Shown: positions 5,130-11,473 of the stretch, piece by piece | How the letters are laid out: each line of letters begins with the position of its first letter | Position numbering within the stretch: position 1 is the stretch's first letter | DNA from: an uncultured Chloroflexia bacterium | Lineage (GTDB): Bacteria; Chloroflexota; Limnocylindria; Limnocylindrales; CSP1-4 | Reading direction: 5' to 3' | DNA: 64,000 nucleotides | Assembly: GCA_963825995.1 (NCBI GenBank) | Contig: CAWGVH010000004.1 | Span: 115,242 to 179,241, forward strand | Program-made: the position numbers and the translations under genes | The notes under the pieces: model-generated | Told to the model about the DNA's origin: nothing | What the model saw: the letters and a program-made list of their open reading frames with translations, nothing else | The model's database searches: none

Positions 5130-5157
5130 GTATACTGAACCGTATGGTGCAGTATAC
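5130..5157. promoter_or_regulatory. Inverted repeat GTATACTG-N12-CAGTATAC spanning the ArsR start codon (candidate autoregulatory operator)
   Basis: Perfect 8-bp arms at 5130-5137 and 5150-5157 in a locally AT-richer patch. ArsR/SmtB repressors typically bind imperfect inverted repeats at their own promoters. Confidence 0.45.
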
Positions 5158-5509
5158 GAGCGGCCGACTCGATGTCTCGTTCGCCGCACTCTCGGACGCC
5201 ACCCGACGGGGCGTGCTGGAGCAGCTCGGACGGGCCGACGCCTCGATCACGGACCTGGCCCGAACGTTCCACATGACCCTCACCGGCATGCGGAAACACG
5301 TCGGCGTCCTGGAGCAGGCCGAGCTCGTCACCACGCAGAAGGTCGGGCGCGTGCGGACCTGCCGGCTCGGCCCGCGCCGACTGGCGGAAGAGACGGCCTG
5401 GATCGAGCGCTACCGCCAGCTCTGGGACGCACGCTTCGACGCGCTGGACGAAGTGGTCGAGGCACTGAAACGGAAGGAGAAGGTCGATGGACGCACGCAG
5501 AGAGAGTGA
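5144..5509 (+). CDS. ArsR/SmtB-family transcriptional regulator
   Basis: 121 aa. FAALSDATRRGVLEQLGRADASITDLARTFHMTLTGMRKHVGVLEQAELV is a winged-HTH of ArsR type. Confidence 0.85.
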   Translation: MVQYTSGRLDVSFAALSDATRRGVLEQLGRADASITDLARTFHMTLTGMRKHVGVLEQAELVTTQKVGRVRTCRLGPRRLAEETAWIERYRQLWDARFDALDEVVEALKRKEKVDGRTQRE

Positions 5510-5996
5510 GGGTGCCCCCGTGAAGGACCGGACGACGGTGGAGCGGACGTCCGAGCGTGAGCTCGTCGTCAGGCGAACGTTCGACGGCCCGGCGCGCCTC
5601 GTGTTCGAGGCGTGGACCAAGCCCGAGCTGTTCAGGCAGTGGTGGGTGCCCAAGTCGATGGGGATGTCGCTGCTTTCCTGCGAGATGGATGTCCGTGTCG
5701 GGGGCAGGTACCGTCTGGAGTTCGCACACGGGGACGCACGGGCGGCGTTCTTCGGCACGTACCAGGAAGTCACACCACCCACGCGCCTCGTGTGGACCAA
5801 TGAGGAGAGCGACGAGGGTCCCGTCACGACGGTGACCTTCGCGGAACAGGGCGGCCAGACGGTGCTGGTCATGCACGAGCTCCATCCTTCGAAGGAAGCT
5901 CTCGACGCCGCCGGCACCGGGGCGGCGGATGCGATGGCAGAGACGTTCGAGCAACTGGACGCGCTTCTCGTCACCCTGGGCGCGAGCGGGGCGTGA
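5487..5996 (+). CDS. SRPBCC-superfamily protein (AHSA1/Aha1-like domain)
   Basis: RELVVRRTFDGPARLVFEAWTKPELFRQWWVP...VRVGGRYRLEF is typical of the AHSA1 family, which is commonly paired with ArsR. The alternative GTG start at 5521 has a better RBS. Confidence 0.8.
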   Translation: MDARRESEGAPVKDRTTVERTSERELVVRRTFDGPARLVFEAWTKPELFRQWWVPKSMGMSLLSCEMDVRVGGRYRLEFAHGDARAAFFGTYQEVTPPTRLVWTNEESDEGPVTTVTFAEQGGQTVLVMHELHPSKEALDAAGTGAADAMAETFEQLDALLVTLGASGA

Positions 5997-6250: not shown

Positions 6251-9200
6251 CTAGCCAGGGGCGGCCAGGAGGTCCCGGACGGCGACGAGCTCCGTCGTCT
6301 CGCCATCCTCTGTGAAGTCGTCGAAGACTCCCTGCAGCGCGGCGAGCCGGTCGGCTCGTCGTGCAGGGGACGACCCCACGTCCGTCTCGAACAGGCGTCT
6401 GGCGGCCCGCAGCTCGGACATCGAGGCACCCCAGCGGCGCGCTGCCTGGACAGCCTCTTCCCAGGCAGCCACAGCTTCGGCAGGCCGGCCAAGCAGGTTG
6501 AGCAGCTCACCGCGCACGACGTGCAAGTCGGGCAGGAAGGGGGCCCGCGTCAGGGCTTCCTCCACGGCTTGGAGTCCCTCCGCGGGACGCCCTGCCTGCC
6601 CACACGCTTCGGCCTGGGTCTGCAGCAGGAAGGGCCAGAAGATCGGTGGCGTCCGCAAGCCCCGATACTGCTCGAGCCCCTGTGACACCCAGTCCAGACC
6701 CTCCGGCCCGAGCCCAAGAGCCACGGCCGAAGCCCCCAGGACGACCGAACCCACCGCCTTCCAGATGTGGAGCTCGTGCTCCTCGGCGACATCGATGACA
6801 CGGACGGCCAGCTCGCGAGCCTTGGCTGGCTCACGCCGCCAGTGGTGGAGCAGCGCGGCGTGGAAGAGCGCGTAGCCCGTGGTCGACGGGTGTCCCAGCT
6901 GACCGGCAAGCTCGAGGGCCTGCGTGGAGTACCGCAGGGAGGTCACCAGGCGCCCCTGCCACCACGTCAGGAGGGACAGCGCGGTCAGCGTCGAGACGCG
7001 CGAGTCGGGACCCATGCGGATGTACGGCCGGTCGTACGGGTGCGTCTGCCACCAGTCGACCGCAGCCTCGAGCTCCGGGATGCCGTCCTCGATGCGGCCG
7101 CCGAAGGCAAGCCCCTGGCCGTACAGAAGGTGGCCATCCACACGGATCTGGGGGTCCCCTTCGACCTCGGCCAGGTCCAGGATCTGCCTCCCCAGCTGGC
7201 GGGAGCGGACGTGGTCGGCGCGGAAGACGTAGAGAGTGGCCAATCCACGCAAGACCGGATAGACCCGTGGCACGGGGGCGCCTTCGACGGAGGCCAGGAG
7301 CCGCTCGTAGGCAGCCTCCACCTCCTCGGTGTAGCCCTCCATGGCTGTCAGTGCGCGAGCCTGGTTGCTGCGCAGGGTGACTGCCAGCAGGTCACGGTCC
7401 GGCGAGCTGGAAGACTGATCCAGCACGTCCAGCACATCCTGGGCAAGATCCGTCAAGGCGCGGTACCAGCCACGGAGGTCGTACAGGGGCTCGAGGCCGA
7501 CCAGGAGCGCCTGCAGCCCGTCGAGGTTCGCCTCGGCCACATCGTGCTGCCAGGCGGTGCGGAGGTTCTCGAGCTCGATGGCCAGCCGCTGGAGCGCCAT
7601 CGAGCGGTCCGGCCCACGAGCCTCGGCTGCGATCCGCTCCGCCCACCGCTCGAAGTAGGCGGCGTGGGCCGAGCGAGCCAGGCGAGCCAGGCGGTCATCC
7701 CGCTCGAGGAGCTCGGTGGCGAACTCGCGCACCGATTCGAGCATCTCGAAGCGCGGCGCCTGGGCGTCGGTCGCGGTCTGGCGCAGCAGACTCTTGTCGG
7801 TCAGCGATAGCAGGTCCTCGACCGGATCGGCATCGGGCCCTCGGTCCGCCAGCCGGGCAGCCACCTCCTCGACCGCTTCGATCTCTGCTCCTCTGAAGCA
7901 GGCCATCATGACGAAGAGCTGCTGCTCCCCGGGAGACAGGAGCTGGTAGCTCCAGTCGATCGTGGAGCGCAGTGTCTGCTGGCGCTCGGGCAGGTCCCGT
8001 GCCCCGCTGCCGAGTGCACGCAAGCGGTTGTGGAGTCGGTCACGCAGCGCATCGAGCGAGAAGACGCGCAGTCGCGCCGCAGCCAGCTCGATGGCCAGGG
8101 GCAGACCCTCCAGGCGGCGACAGATCTCGGCCACCACGGCTGCGTTGTCGTCGGTGATGCGGAACTCAGGCCGTACGGCACGTGCACGGTCGACGAAGAG
8201 CAGCACCGCCTCGAAACGTTCGATCCCCTCGGACGAGGCCCTCGCAGAGCCAAGCGATGGAAACGCCAGCGGCAGGATGGTCAAGAGCTGCTCTTCGCGG
8301 ACGTGGAGCGGCTCGCGGCTGGTCACGAGCAGCTTCAGGCCGGGGCACCCCTGCAGCAGTCGCACCAGTGTCGGCGCCACACCGGTCACCTGCTCGACGG
8401 TGTCGAGGATGAGGAGCCGGGGTTGGCGACCGATGTGGGTCACGAGCTCGGCCAACTGAGCGTCTTCGCTGGCATCGGCGTACCCCAGCGTGCGACCGAT
8501 CTCCATGAGCACCGCGCTGGCATCCCGGGCCATGGCGAGGTCCACGAAGGCGACGCCAGTCGGGAAGGCAGCCTCGACGTCACGGGCCGCTCGCATGGCC
8601 AACCTCGTCTTGCCGATACCACCTGGTCCCGTGATCGTCAGCAGCCGCACGTCCGGGTCGACCAGTCGCCCGGCGAGCCAGGTCCGCTCCGACTCCCGGC
8701 CGAGGAATGCCGACGGTTCGGGCGGTAATGAGACCTGGCGCATGTCCACGGTGGTGAGGGGCAGAAAGGCGCCGGGCATGGCCGGGTGATCCACCTGGTA
8801 GACGTGCTCAGGGCGGGCCAGGTCCTTCAGGAGGTGTTCACCAAGGTCCTGCAGCGCGACACCCGCCGGAAGCTGGTCCATGACCAGGGCCGCAGTCGGC
8901 CCGGAGAGTAGGATCTGGCCACCGTGGCCGGCCGCCATGACGCGCGCGGCCCGGTTGACGGCCGGACCATGGAAGTCGTGGCCGTCTCCTGAGCCCTCCC
9001 CGACATGCAGGCCCATGCGTACGCGGAGCGGCCCGGTCTCACCCCAGTTCGCCGCCGCGAGTGCCATCTGGGCGGCGACACAGGCGACCACGCCATCGCG
9101 TGCTGTATCGAAGACGGCCATGAGCCCGTCTCCGGTCGTCTTGATGACCCGTCCGCGCGCACCCTCGACGGCATCGACGAGGAGGCGGTCGTGCTGTGCG

Positions 9201-9316
9201 AGGGAGTCACGCATGGCCTCCGGGTGTCTCTCCCACAGGCGAGTACTGCCCTCTACATCGGTGAAGAGGAAGGCGAGTGTACGGGTGATGGCAGGAGCCG
9301 ACGGGACGATGTTCAC
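6251..9316 (-). CDS. Class III adenylate/guanylate cyclase fused to a STAND P-loop NTPase and a C-terminal TPR-like array
   Basis: Cyclase motifs FLFTDVEGST, IKTTGDGLMAVF and GPAVNRAARV. Walker A ITGPGGIGKTRLA and Walker B LLILDTVE. About 600 aa of helical repeats follow. The GTG at 9316 overlaps the upstream stop (GTGA). The track ATG at 9367 is the alternative start. Confidence 0.85.
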   Translation of the reverse strand: MNIVPSAPAITRTLAFLFTDVEGSTRLWERHPEAMRDSLAQHDRLLVDAVEGARGRVIKTTGDGLMAVFDTARDGVVACVAAQMALAAANWGETGPLRVRMGLHVGEGSGDGHDFHGPAVNRAARVMAAGHGGQILLSGPTAALVMDQLPAGVALQDLGEHLLKDLARPEHVYQVDHPAMPGAFLPLTTVDMRQVSLPPEPSAFLGRESERTWLAGRLVDPDVRLLTITGPGGIGKTRLAMRAARDVEAAFPTGVAFVDLAMARDASAVLMEIGRTLGYADASEDAQLAELVTHIGRQPRLLILDTVEQVTGVAPTLVRLLQGCPGLKLLVTSREPLHVREEQLLTILPLAFPSLGSARASSEGIERFEAVLLFVDRARAVRPEFRITDDNAAVVAEICRRLEGLPLAIELAAARLRVFSLDALRDRLHNRLRALGSGARDLPERQQTLRSTIDWSYQLLSPGEQQLFVMMACFRGAEIEAVEEVAARLADRGPDADPVEDLLSLTDKSLLRQTATDAQAPRFEMLESVREFATELLERDDRLARLARSAHAAYFERWAERIAAEARGPDRSMALQRLAIELENLRTAWQHDVAEANLDGLQALLVGLEPLYDLRGWYRALTDLAQDVLDVLDQSSSSPDRDLLAVTLRSNQARALTAMEGYTEEVEAAYERLLASVEGAPVPRVYPVLRGLATLYVFRADHVRSRQLGRQILDLAEVEGDPQIRVDGHLLYGQGLAFGGRIEDGIPELEAAVDWWQTHPYDRPYIRMGPDSRVSTLTALSLLTWWQGRLVTSLRYSTQALELAGQLGHPSTTGYALFHAALLHHWRREPAKARELAVRVIDVAEEHELHIWKAVGSVVLGASAVALGLGPEGLDWVSQGLEQYRGLRTPPIFWPFLLQTQAEACGQAGRPAEGLQAVEEALTRAPFLPDLHVVRGELLNLLGRPAEAVAAWEEAVQAARRWGASMSELRAARRLFETDVGSSPARRADRLAALQGVFDDFTEDGETTELVAVRDLLAAPG

Positions 9317-10155
9317 GGCGACGGTCCGAGCGTGATCGTCGCTCCTTGACGAGCAGCCTGCGCCCACGTTGTCCTGGCAGCCTCTCGTGCCTCGAGCTCC
9401 AGGCGCTCGACAGCGGTGTCGTCATGTGCGGGATCGTGATGGAAGAGCGCCAGCCTGCGGGCACCCGTCATCTCCGCGAACGCGACCGCATCGACCACCG
9501 ACGAGTGACCCCAGCCCAGGTACGCGGGGTACTCGTCCGCAGCGTACTGCGCATCGTGGATCAGGAGATCCGCGTCACGCGCGATGGCGGCTCCGGATGT
9601 CCAGCGCGCCTGCGACGGGAAGGATGGTGAGAGCGCCGGCTCGTGGTCGGGCAGATAGGCCACGATCTGACCGTCCGTCTCGATGCGGTAGCCGACGGCC
9701 GTGTCGGGATGGATGATCGACGCTGCCGTGATCTTGAATTCGCCACGCGTGACCGGGTCCTCGCCCGCGTCACACAGGTGGAGCTCGCACGAGAGGTCCC
9801 TGATGCGGACCGGGAACAGCGGCGGCGACAGGTAGCGGCCCAGTCGATGGAGCAGCGACGTGGACGACGGAGGTGCCCAGATCGTGACGCGCAAGTCGGG
9901 TCGGAACAGGGGCGCGAAGAACCCAAGACCGAGGATGTGGTCGAGGTGGAGGTGCGAAAGGAAGATGTCGATCCTCTTGACCTCGCTCGAGACGTTGGTC
10001 CCCAGCCGGCGAATGCCCGTCCCCGCGTCCAGGACGATGAGGTGCGCGGGGTCCACTCCGGTGATAGCCACGCAGGACGTGTCGCCACCGTAGGTGATGG
10101 TCTCCGGACCGGGTGTCGCCAGGGAGCCGCGCGTCCCCCAGAAGGTGATCCTCAC
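9313..10155 (-). CDS. MBL-fold metallo-hydrolase (Lactamase_B_2-like; possible phosphodiesterase)
   Basis: GTG at 10155 (VRITFWGTRGSLATPG...YGGDTSCV). HLHLDH metal motif, and later HDAQY and WGHSS. GTGA overlaps at both ends. Confidence 0.8.
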   Translation of the reverse strand: MRITFWGTRGSLATPGPETITYGGDTSCVAITGVDPAHLIVLDAGTGIRRLGTNVSSEVKRIDIFLSHLHLDHILGLGFFAPLFRPDLRVTIWAPPSSTSLLHRLGRYLSPPLFPVRIRDLSCELHLCDAGEDPVTRGEFKITAASIIHPDTAVGYRIETDGQIVAYLPDHEPALSPSFPSQARWTSGAAIARDADLLIHDAQYAADEYPAYLGWGHSSVVDAVAFAEMTGARRLALFHHDPAHDDTAVERLELEAREAARTTWAQAARQGATITLGPSP

Positions 10156-10544
10156 GATCCGGCACTCTCCCAGAACATCGCGACTGCGCCGATGACTCGA
10201 TCGGGGGGCGCGATGATGGGAAAGGCGGTCACCTCGATCGATCGCTTCACGCCGTCGGCACCCACGATCTCGAACTGGCTGTGCGCCGGAGTCGATCGCC
10301 GGAGCGCCACGACGAGGGGAAGCTGATCCGCATCCAACCGTCGGCCCTGTGACGCGGGCACGAACGCGGTCGTCCACTCCTCGAAAGGCATGAGTTGGAT
10401 CTCGTCGAAATGACGCCCAAGCACTCGCTCGGCGGGTTCGTTGAAGTACACGAGTTCGCCGCTCGCGTCGACGACGAAGACGGGGATCGCCAACCGGCTC
10501 GCCAGGTGCCGGACGAGGATGAGCTCCACTGGATACTGGCCCAT
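10152..10544 (-). CDS. Stand-alone PAS-domain sensor protein
   Basis: ATG at 10544 (MGQYPVELILV). IPVFVVDASGELVYFNEPAERVLG...IEVTAFPI...VIGAVAMFWE matches the PAS-fold pattern. Confidence 0.7.
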   Translation of the reverse strand: MGQYPVELILVRHLASRLAIPVFVVDASGELVYFNEPAERVLGRHFDEIQLMPFEEWTTAFVPASQGRRLDADQLPLVVALRRSTPAHSQFEIVGADGVKRSIEVTAFPIIAPPDRVIGAVAMFWESAGS

Positions 10545-10788: not shown

Positions 10789-11304
10789 TCAGGCGGCACC
10801 CGGTGATCGAACCCCCCTGCCGCGGTGGCCTCCCCGGTCGATCGGCCGTCGCAGACCAGAGCCGGGCGAGAGGTAGGTACGGAACCGGAGCGTGTGCAGA
10901 CCGAACAGGGTCCCGATGGCCACGCGACGGAACAGCTCGCCGCGCGGGACTGCCCAGCCGGCCTGGCGGGCAGTCGCGACCTCCGGATCGCGGAGCAGGA
11001 GGGCGCCTGCCGTTGCAGCAGCAGCGGCAGCGGTCGCCTCCGTCCAGAGAAGGACCGCCGGCCCGGGTTGGAGACGCGACGGCGCACCGCTCGCGATCAG
11101 GAGGAGATCCCGCATCAGCAGGCCGACGACCACGGCCTGGACGAGCAGGGCGCCGCGGCGCCCGAACCTGGCGATCGCGACCTGGGTCAGCGGGAACCCG
11201 GTGCCGCTGAGCACCAGGATGGCTGGACCAACGCGGCCGAGGGAGCCTTCGTCGGGCGACCGATCGTACGCGCGGCGGCTGATGAGTGCCCGGACCATGG
11301 TCAT
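10789..11304 (-). CDS. Hypothetical membrane protein
   Basis: ATG at 11304 (MTMVRALISRR). Hydrophobic segments and strong G/C third-position bias in this frame. No recognisable family. Confidence 0.4.
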   Translation of the reverse strand: MTMVRALISRRAYDRSPDEGSLGRVGPAILVLSGTGFPLTQVAIARFGRRGALLVQAVVVGLLMRDLLLIASGAPSRLQPGPAVLLWTEATAAAAAATAGALLLRDPEVATARQAGWAVPRGELFRRVAIGTLFGLHTLRFRTYLSPGSGLRRPIDRGGHRGRGVRSPGAA

Positions 11305-11473
11305 GGTGCGATCGACCCTCGACCCTGAGGCCACGGAGGCGTGGACTGACACCGGGCGGCGGCCACAGTGCACCACGATGGTCGCACAAGTACTCCGCGA
11401 TTTCTGACGGCGCGCTGACGCGATGGGGCACCGAGGCATCGCAGCCGTGCTGGCCGCCCGTGCTGGAAGCCGA

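Follow-up and report, generated by a model that had tools for sequence, protein, structure and literature searches.

A conserved gene pair and a recent third gene

The 64,000 nucleotides (nt) of DNA considered here, which we refer to as the window, come from contig CAWGVH010000004.1 of an uncultured Chloroflexia bacterium (assembly GCA_963825995.1; about 68% GC) and carry three consecutive, overlapping genes on the minus strand. The first (10152-10544) encodes a stand-alone PAS sensor protein of 130 amino acids (aa), the second (9313-10155) a metallo-β-lactamase (MBL)-fold hydrolase of 280 aa, and the third (6251-9316) a protein of 1021 aa in which a class III nucleotidyl cyclase is followed by an NB-ARC ATPase of the STAND type and a TPR-like repeat region. 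A preliminary description of the region had presented these genes as a translationally coupled operon that might both make and destroy a cyclic nucleotide, a self-contained 'writer' and 'eraser'. Comparison with related loci shows that the conserved and old unit at this locus is the PAS gene together with the MBL gene, and that the third gene is not conserved with them.

The gene layout given in the preliminary description is borne out by our reading of the sequence. The TGA stop codon of the PAS gene and the GTG start codon of the MBL gene share positions 10152-10155, read in GGATCGTGAGGATC, and the stop codon of the MBL gene and the GTG start codon of the cyclase gene share positions 9313-9316, read in CGCCGTGAACATC, so that each junction is a GTGA overlap. 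High-GC operons often show 4 nt start/stop overlaps, which are unremarkable when considered alone. The first of these overlaps represents an ancient and conserved translational coupling, whereas the second is a recent junction left by a deletion.

Evidence for the age of the first junction came from representative genomes, one for each GTDB species, in which an alignment of the MBL family identified 584 confirmed loci; we retained the top 80 of these. In 46 loci the MBL protein shares at least 45% identity with that of the window, and 44 of them have a homolog of the window PAS gene immediately upstream on the same strand. These loci are distributed among Chloroflexota, Actinomycetota, Rokubacteria/Methylomirabilota, β-Proteobacteria, Verrucomicrobiota, Bacteroidota, Acidobacteriota, Binatia and other groups. 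The PAS/MBL junction is an overlap of exactly 4 nt in 28 of the 44, and the remaining 16 range from a 10 nt overlap to an 89 nt gap, with 13 of them at 19 nt or less. When 5609 open reading frames (ORFs) flanking the loci were clustered all against all, no conserved neighbour other than the PAS gene emerged; the clusters held only shadow ORFs and generic ABC and response-regulator genes, and the response regulators examined are ordinary OmpR-type or single-domain REC proteins. Literature searches yielded no description of a PAS-MBL pair.

The third gene has a different distribution. A cyclase-STAND gene follows the MBL gene as the next gene only in the window and in two related loci, L087 and L088, whose cyclase proteins are 94% and 91% identical to that of the window. 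In both relatives the MBL gene ends with TAG and the GTG start codon of the cyclase gene follows 153-154 nt downstream. In the window this TAG is changed to TCG and approximately 152 nt are missing. As the spacer is present in L087 and L088 and missing in the window, the second GTGA overlap is the product of a recent deletion specific to the window. Another close relative, L081 (MBL 91% identical), retains the spacer up to some 10 nt ahead of the cyclase GTG, and the position of the cyclase-STAND gene is there occupied by a run of toxin-antitoxin modules (RHH/PIN, PemK and VapB/PIN; L081:10838-13252). In L084 (MBL 86% identical) an LtrA gene lies downstream. Four cyclase-STAND homologs with 60-64% identity reside in unrelated contexts with no PAS-MBL genes within 8 kb, and the assembly that contains locus L083 (sample ERZ25039527) carries a closer paralog of the cyclase on a separate contig, L091.

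The cyclase-STAND gene is thus a variable and recent addition to the PAS-MBL pair in a narrow lineage. Because the gene is absent beside most PAS-MBL pairs, and the pair is absent beside the closest outside homologs of the cyclase, the writer-eraser operon is not conserved. The expectation that all three genes would occur together in related genomes largely failed, as only the PAS and MBL genes are kept, and the proposed self-contained operon is a young arrangement of this genome. The same observations lend weight to a fortuitous juxtaposition, by which the PAS-MBL pair and the cyclase-STAND gene would be functionally unrelated: a paralog that changes its genomic context readily would have inserted downstream of the pair, a neutral deletion would have fused the genes, and the MBL enzyme might act on something other than what the cyclase makes. 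The replacement of the cyclase gene by toxin-antitoxin modules after the same spacer, the LtrA gene in L084, the four homologs that lack the pair, and the closer paralog on contig L091 are all in agreement with this explanation, which we nevertheless consider less likely than the account proposed below, in view of the gene neighbourhoods and domain fusions.

The PAS protein and its MBL-fold partner

The domain assignments of the preliminary description proved correct for all three proteins when these were searched against Pfam, with the TPR repeats alone matched below gathering scores, and every motif that it named in the cyclase, the ATPase and the MBL protein was located. The PAS protein matches the families PAS (30.5 bits, cut-off 22.6) and PAS_4 (29.2 bits, cut-off 23.1). 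Its AlphaFold2 (AF2) model has a mean confidence (pLDDT) of 90.9 and adopts the canonical PAS fold with an additional N-terminal helix. A Foldseek search with this model returned generic PAS matches, including LOV domains, the FAD-binding PAS domain of NifL and the haem-binding PAS domain of DosP, and the PAS alignment lacks the motif that carries the flavin-adduct cysteine of LOV domains (GXNCRFLQ); the corresponding region reads YFNEPAERVLG and contains no conserved cysteine. Neither the generic fold matches nor the alignment pointed to a cofactor.

The PAS family comprises approximately 1500 representatives at 50% clustering, nearly all of which either stand alone, with a length of about 130 aa, or contain two PAS domains in tandem, and the MBL protein has more than 8000 close homologs. 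Its occurrence upstream of the MBL gene identifies the PAS protein as a dedicated partner of the MBL enzyme. The preservation of the 4 nt overlap across phyla argues for stoichiometric co-production of the two proteins and for a physical complex between them.

The top-ranking PAS representatives measure 270-300 aa and carry two PAS domains in tandem, and two PAS copies lie upstream of the MBL gene at some loci (L002:9108-9962, L010:681-1490 and L046:9144-9986). An apparent PAS-MBL fusion of 409 aa (P0386) was rejected as a frameshift or assembly artefact, as its FWGTRGS, HDxQY and GWGHS motifs are replaced by sequence that looks out of frame.

The MBL protein belongs to the Lactamase_B_2 family (PF12706, E 2.6e-20) of ELAC/RNase Z-like metallo-phosphodiesterases. 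The HLHLDH sequence singled out in the preliminary description is found at residues 68-73 and is preceded by S67, so that the complete metal-binding motif, SHLHLDH (residues 67-73; 9937-9957, minus strand), fits the [T/S]HxHxDH pattern of the atypical class II phosphodiesterases. The metal ligands H68, H70, D72, H73, H149, D170, H217, H239 and H240 are invariant in the family alignment. An AF2 model of the protein (pLDDT 85) gave RNase Z (1y44, E 2.8e-14) and YhfI of Bacillus subtilis (6kns, E 2.1e-13) together as the top Foldseek matches, with PhnP-family proteins and Apyc1 ranked below them. Sequence profiles agree with this result and place RNase Z and YhfI at about the same distance from the protein.

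Comparison with curated NCBIfam models gave matches that are far below their thresholds. The MBL protein scored 73.9 bits with the RNase Z model TIGR02651 (cut-off 293), 56.5 bits over the full length of the cyclic-nucleotide phosphodiesterase model NF041851 (cyc_nuc_deg_phdiest; cut-off 400), and 27.6 bits with the PhnP model TIGR03307 (cut-off 272). All 19 family members searched match the RNase Z models and, in full length, NF041851, with a best E-value of 1e-16 for the latter, and none comes near any curated cut-off. The profile of the typical class II phosphodiesterases, PF02112 (PDEase_II), gave no match to the MBL protein at E ≤ 0.01. The suggestion that the enzyme is a class II-type phosphodiesterase therefore stands in part: it is plausible from the S-HxHxDH motif, the NCBIfam match, and the domain fusions and neighbouring cyclase and cNMP-binding genes described below, whereas the typical class II profile finds no match and the protein is no closer to any phosphodiesterase than to RNase Z.

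Atypical class II phosphodiesterases, which include Rv1339 of Mycobacterium tuberculosis, CpdA of Corynebacterium glutamicum and YhfI of B. subtilis, have been defined by a PF12706 fold, a [T/S]HxHxDH motif and an RNase Z-like ancestry (Thomson et al., 2022; PMC9293780). The window protein has both the fold and the motif (S67-HLHLDH) of this definition, is of similar size to these enzymes (~250-280 aa) and, like them, lacks the RNase Z arm. The YhfI structure aligns with a TM-score of about 0.76 on the target, with a sequence identity of only 21-22% in the Foldseek alignment. The window protein differs from the group in falling far short of the NCBIfam equivalog cut-off (56.5 versus 400 bits) and in having an obligate partner gene, encoding a PAS protein, to which it is translationally coupled. 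To our knowledge no PAS partner gene has been reported for Rv1339, CpdA or YhfI, and our literature searches found none. By motif and fold the protein thus resembles the Rv1339 group, of which it is a putative member, but it forms a separate clade that is defined by the PAS partner.

The similarity to RNase Z raises the alternative that the MBL protein is a PAS-regulated nuclease or a phosphodiesterase with a substrate other than 3′,5′-cyclic mononucleotides, for example an RNase Z/BN-like or PhnP-like enzyme or one that acts on cyclic di-GMP (c-di-GMP) or 2′,3′-cyclic nucleotides, and has no role in cyclic AMP (cAMP) metabolism. Ribonuclease Z/ELAC1 (1y44 and 2cbn) provides the best match in both sequence and fold and shares the same metal-ligand motifs, relatives of the protein are annotated by JGI as 'phosphoribosyl 1,2-cyclic phosphodiesterase', and fusions to GGDEF domains would suit c-di-GMP as the substrate. 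We nevertheless judge this alternative to be improbable, for the RNase Z and PhnP thresholds are missed widely and no conserved phn genes were found near PAS-MBL in the clustering of flanking ORFs. Furthermore, segment 151-220 of B. subtilis RNase Z, which holds the exosite and carries the flexible tRNA-binding arm, faces only about 30 residues of the MBL protein (160-190), a reduction from approximately 70. The clade also occurs in signalling contexts, with a PAS partner or fused to REC, GAF and cyclic nucleoside monophosphate (cNMP)-binding domains, and regulation of this kind is typical of second-messenger enzymes and not of tRNA processing.

Several further searches concerned the MBL protein. 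An exact-sequence look-up of the window protein returned no record, and a phage collection gave only two weak matches. In a plasmid collection only stand-alone MBL proteins of 36-38% identity were found, on rhizobial megaplasmids. One of these has a cyclase gene 3 kb away, which is uninformative, as rhizobia are rich in cyclases. Paired MBL homologs, located about 0.3-0.7 kb apart on the same strand, occur in metagenome-assembled genomes (MAGs) of Candidatus Acidoferrales (L071:817-2912) and Verrucomicrobiota (L075:5158-7632).

Fusions and neighbouring genes related to nucleotide signalling

Loci with MBL proteins of about 40% identity that lack a PAS gene provide information about the domains with which this enzyme is associated. 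At about 20 of 34 such loci the MBL domain forms the N-terminal part of a longer protein. Eight of the longer proteins (from L050, L052, L058, L059, L063, L072, L078 and L079) were scanned with Pfam and proved to be MBL-REC, MBL-REC-GAF or MBL-REC-cNMP_binding-GGDEF proteins. The fusions originate from Rokubacteria, Nitrospirales, Chloroflexi, Proteobacteria and a halobacterial MAG. We know of no description of an MBL domain as the output domain of a response regulator.

An MBL catalytic domain combined with cNMP-binding domains has a precedent in GbpA and GbpB of Dictyostelium, which are cNMP-activated phosphodiesterases (PMC11988041). The likeness to these class IIb enzymes, which carry an MBL domain and two cNMP-binding domains, is one of domain make-up: in each case an MBL catalytic domain is placed under a small-molecule sensor, and bacterial relatives of the window protein are fused to a cNMP-binding domain. 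The sensor of the window enzyme differs in being a separate PAS protein.

We also searched the neighbourhoods of 52 PAS-MBL loci with custom hidden Markov models (HMMs) for cyclases and cNMP-binding domains, over a range of 10 kb and with some flanks truncated. A class III cyclase gene is present at 13 of the 52, and in 12 of these 13 it lies within 5.5 kb (binomial p = 0.005, or 0.02 with related loci collapsed). The cyclases belong to unrelated architectures, including cyclase-STAND-TPR proteins (L012, L041, L083 and L085), a DZR-cyclase-AAA16-TPR protein (L005), an AAA16-GerE-cyclase protein (L009), a GAF-cyclase protein (L011), and a cyclase of about 480 aa whose gene is paired with an SBP_bac_1 gene (L081, L083, L084 and L087). 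In a Dehalococcoidia MAG, genes for a cNMP_binding protein (142 aa), a PAS protein and an MBL protein stand in a row on one strand (L025:9145-10843), and L085 carries two cNMP_binding genes in addition to its cyclase-STAND gene. A 309 aa protein, P0379 (L092:546-1475), combines a class III cyclase domain with, at its C-terminus, a PAS domain of the window PAS family; the transition-state Asn of this cyclase is replaced by Val, and its gene lies on a single 1.7 kb contig with no MBL gene in the 208 nt downstream. The background frequency of cyclase genes is low, as the window contains no second cyclase and three cyclase-centred loci, about 54 kb in total, add only a weak DUF2652 match to the focal gene.

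Considered together, the fusions and the neighbourhood data favour a cyclic nucleotide as the substrate of the MBL enzyme, for which the role of a cyclic-nucleotide phosphodiesterase is plausible on the strength of its motif and fold. They also bear on the fortuitous juxtaposition introduced above. Most PAS-MBL loci (38 of 52) lack both a cyclase and a cNMP-binding gene over this range of 10 kb, as would be expected if the genes were unrelated. Chance alone accounts less readily for the recurrence of cyclases of several unrelated architectures about 5 kb from PAS-MBL in different phyla, for cNMP-binding domains fused or adjacent to members of the MBL clade, and for the fact that the sole cyclase in the window stands at this very locus.

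In the closest relatives of the window locus, the PAS-MBL pair adjoins a divergent flavoprotein gene of the Pyr_redox_2/Pyr_redox_dim type (about 470 aa). The class III cyclase paired with SBP_bac_1 in these genomes has 480-497 aa, of which the N-terminal 300 have no Pfam match, and the two genes may constitute a binding-protein-coupled cyclase. The region with the flavoprotein and SBP_bac_1-cyclase genes spans L081:6636-9442, L084:5290-9442, L087:4607-8631 and L083:7935-13720.

The cyclase-STAND protein and models for the locus

The product of the third gene has an N-terminal cyclase catalytic domain (residues 14-164; 8825-9277), which matches Guanylate_cyc (PF00211) with an E-value of 4.6e-13 (49.6 bits, cut-off 21.9). 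The motifs FTDVEG (18-23, with D20), IKTTGDG (58-64, with K59 and D63) and VNRAARV (120-126, with N121 and R125) had been recognized previously, and a further motif, HDFHG (113-117), supplies D114. Together these provide the metal ligands (D20 and D63), the residues that specify the substrate (K59 and D114) and those of the transition state (N121 and R125). All six are invariant in 14 homologs with identities down to 48%, and the domain is by its residues catalytically complete, as had been suggested. The nearest structure in the PDB is the active adenylyl cyclase Ma1120 of Mycobacterium avium (4wp9, E 1.3e-17), a stand-alone enzyme with the same set of catalytic residues and, unlike the window protein, no STAND or TPR modules. 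In class III cyclases a Lys/Asp pair predicts ATP as the substrate, and the K59/D114 pair of the window protein therefore makes cAMP the predicted product.

The cyclase is followed by the P-loop NTPase core of an NB-ARC module (residues 204-335; 8312-8707). The Pfam NB-ARC match covers residues 214-335 (32.2 bits, cut-off 23.5), and AAA_16 and AAA_22 also match. Walker A (GPGGIGKT, 230-237; 8606-8629) and Walker B (LLILDTVE, 301-308; 8393-8416) are both present, and residues G230-T237 and D305 are invariant in the same 14 homologs. Residues 336-560 form the remainder of the STAND module, in which homologs show a weak HTH_77 match. The C-terminal part of the protein (residues ~560-1021; 6254-7639) is a helical-repeat, TPR-like region that is presumed to be the sensor. 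The P-loop NTPase was confirmed as NB-ARC. The TPR-like repeats had been estimated at about 600 aa and occupy approximately 460; matches to TPR_12, TPR_2 and TPR_16 (residues 776-959) all fall below gathering scores, and relatives of the protein match TPR_12 and TPR_MalT more strongly. The repeat region is strongly conserved among homologs with identities down to 48% and contains an invariant TPPxFW motif (889-894; 6641-6658), which suggests that a sensor ligand or partner is conserved.

The mycobacterial proteins Rv0386, Rv1358 and Rv2488c consist of a class III cyclase, an NB-ARC ATPase, TPR repeats and a LuxR helix-turn-helix (HTH) domain. The window protein shares with this group the order of cyclase, STAND ATPase and helical repeats, and lacks the HTH domain: no LuxR/GerE HTH match was found in it even at E ≤ 1, nor in its 120 best homologs, which all share its architecture over their full length of about 1020-1050 aa. 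This agrees with the preliminary description, in which the HTH domain was noted as absent, and implies that the protein has no output other than its nucleotide. A database search with the complete protein gave 7998 matches, the best of which carry the JGI name 'predicted ATPase/class 3 adenylate cyclase'. The protein is thus unexceptional within its paralogous family, which counts thousands of members and is very large in soil metagenomes. We know of no full-length member of the cyclase-STAND-TPR family that has been characterized.

We propose that two units of different age meet at this locus. The first is an ancient two-gene module, found in many phyla and joined by translational coupling, of a PAS protein and an ELAC-like MBL enzyme from which the tRNA-binding arm of RNase Z has been lost. 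The PAS protein would bind the MBL enzyme in a ratio of about 1:1 and switch it in response to a ligand or redox cue, and the enzyme would hydrolyse a cyclic-nucleotide second messenger, most probably 3′,5′-cAMP in the window genome. The second unit is the cyclase-NB-ARC-TPR paralog, whose cyclase domain is predicted to make cAMP. A ligand bound to the TPR region would drive nucleotide-dependent oligomerization of the STAND module, and this presumably would activate the cyclase, because cyclase domains act as dimers. In a narrow lineage the cyclase-STAND gene came to lie behind the PAS-MBL pair, and the deletion of about 152 nt in the window genome would then have fused it into the PAS-MBL transcript. 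As a result, synthesis and degradation of the messenger would be co-expressed, each gated by its own sensor. We consider the chances that this account, with an ancient PAS-gated phosphodiesterase and a recently captured adenylyl cyclase, is correct to be evenly balanced.

A number of observations weigh against this account. The MBL protein scores slightly better in sequence against RNase Z than against YhfI and reaches no curated family threshold, and a fusion of MBL to GGDEF would fit a c-di-GMP hydrolase equally well. Statistical support from the neighbourhoods is modest, and the loci are partly related. A Fisher test against loci that lack the PAS gene gave only p = 0.05, and most PAS-MBL loci fall among the 38 without either type of gene nearby. 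The PAS domain cannot be assigned a cofactor or ligand from its fold or sequence. The absence of a cNMP-binding effector gene, already remarked on in the preliminary description, extends to the entire window when this is scanned with the custom HMM. Finally, co-transcription of the three genes is predicted from the overlaps; a scan for promoters and terminators returned no minus-strand signal, a result that says little for a high-GC genome of the actinobacterial type.

The combination of an effector, a STAND ATPase and a repeat sensor resembles the layout of Avs and NLR switches, and an immune-like function had been raised as a possibility. In an antiphage system of the NLR/Avs or Pycsar type, the STAND protein would sense phage and a cyclic nucleotide would be made, with the MBL enzyme serving to reset the response or protect the cell. 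The phage enzyme Apyc1 has the same MBL fold (Foldseek E 1.6e-8), and a PADLOC search gave a single weak match (27.6 bits), of PycC to the cyclase domain. The STAND, MBL and PAS proteins match none of the PADLOC models, however, and the Lys/Asp pair predicts ATP and not CTP or UTP as the substrate. Neither the cNMP-binding HMM nor a check of the flanking genes revealed a cNMP-activated killing effector nearby, and the flanking genes are ordinary ones that encode a sugar ABC transporter, an ArsR-type HTH protein and an AHSA1 protein, a HEAT-repeat protein and a HAD hydrolase. Members of about 1020 aa number in the thousands, and one metagenome assembly carries two or more of them (L083 and L091), which suggests that there are several paralogs per genome, and the phage homologs of the MBL protein are essentially nil. 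An immune function is unlikely, and the specific antiphage mechanism outlined here is very improbable.

The PAS-MBL pair is the more interesting object at this locus. The three-gene operon is not a new kind of system. Degradation of cAMP and cyclic GMP (cGMP) in bacteria is poorly mapped, and the MBL-type 'atypical class II' enzymes were recognized only in 2022. No regulated member of this phosphodiesterase group was found in the searchable literature. We tentatively suggest, with rather less than even confidence, that the pair represents an unrecognized and very widespread family of sensor-gated cNMP phosphodiesterases, whose catalytic domain is fused to REC, GAF or cNMP-binding domains in sister clades. 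If so, bacterial cAMP and cGMP signalling would have in this family a major 'eraser' that has so far been missing, and in the window this eraser would just have been wired to a STAND-gated adenylyl cyclase. An MBL enzyme with a PAS partner conserved over many phyla would be a candidate, open to testing, for the removal of a second messenger under the control of a signal, and the natural pairing at this locus allows one to ask whether STAND cyclases and MBL enzymes share one nucleotide.

Two other features flank the three genes. An ORF upstream of the PAS gene (10789-11439, minus strand) encodes a hydrophobic, Ala-rich sequence with no Pfam match and is doubtful both as a gene and as a member of the operon. 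On the plus strand, convergent to the cyclase gene, an ArsR-type HTH_20 gene overlaps an AHSA1/SRPBCC gene (5144-5996), and these form an ordinary pair that is unrelated to the three genes.

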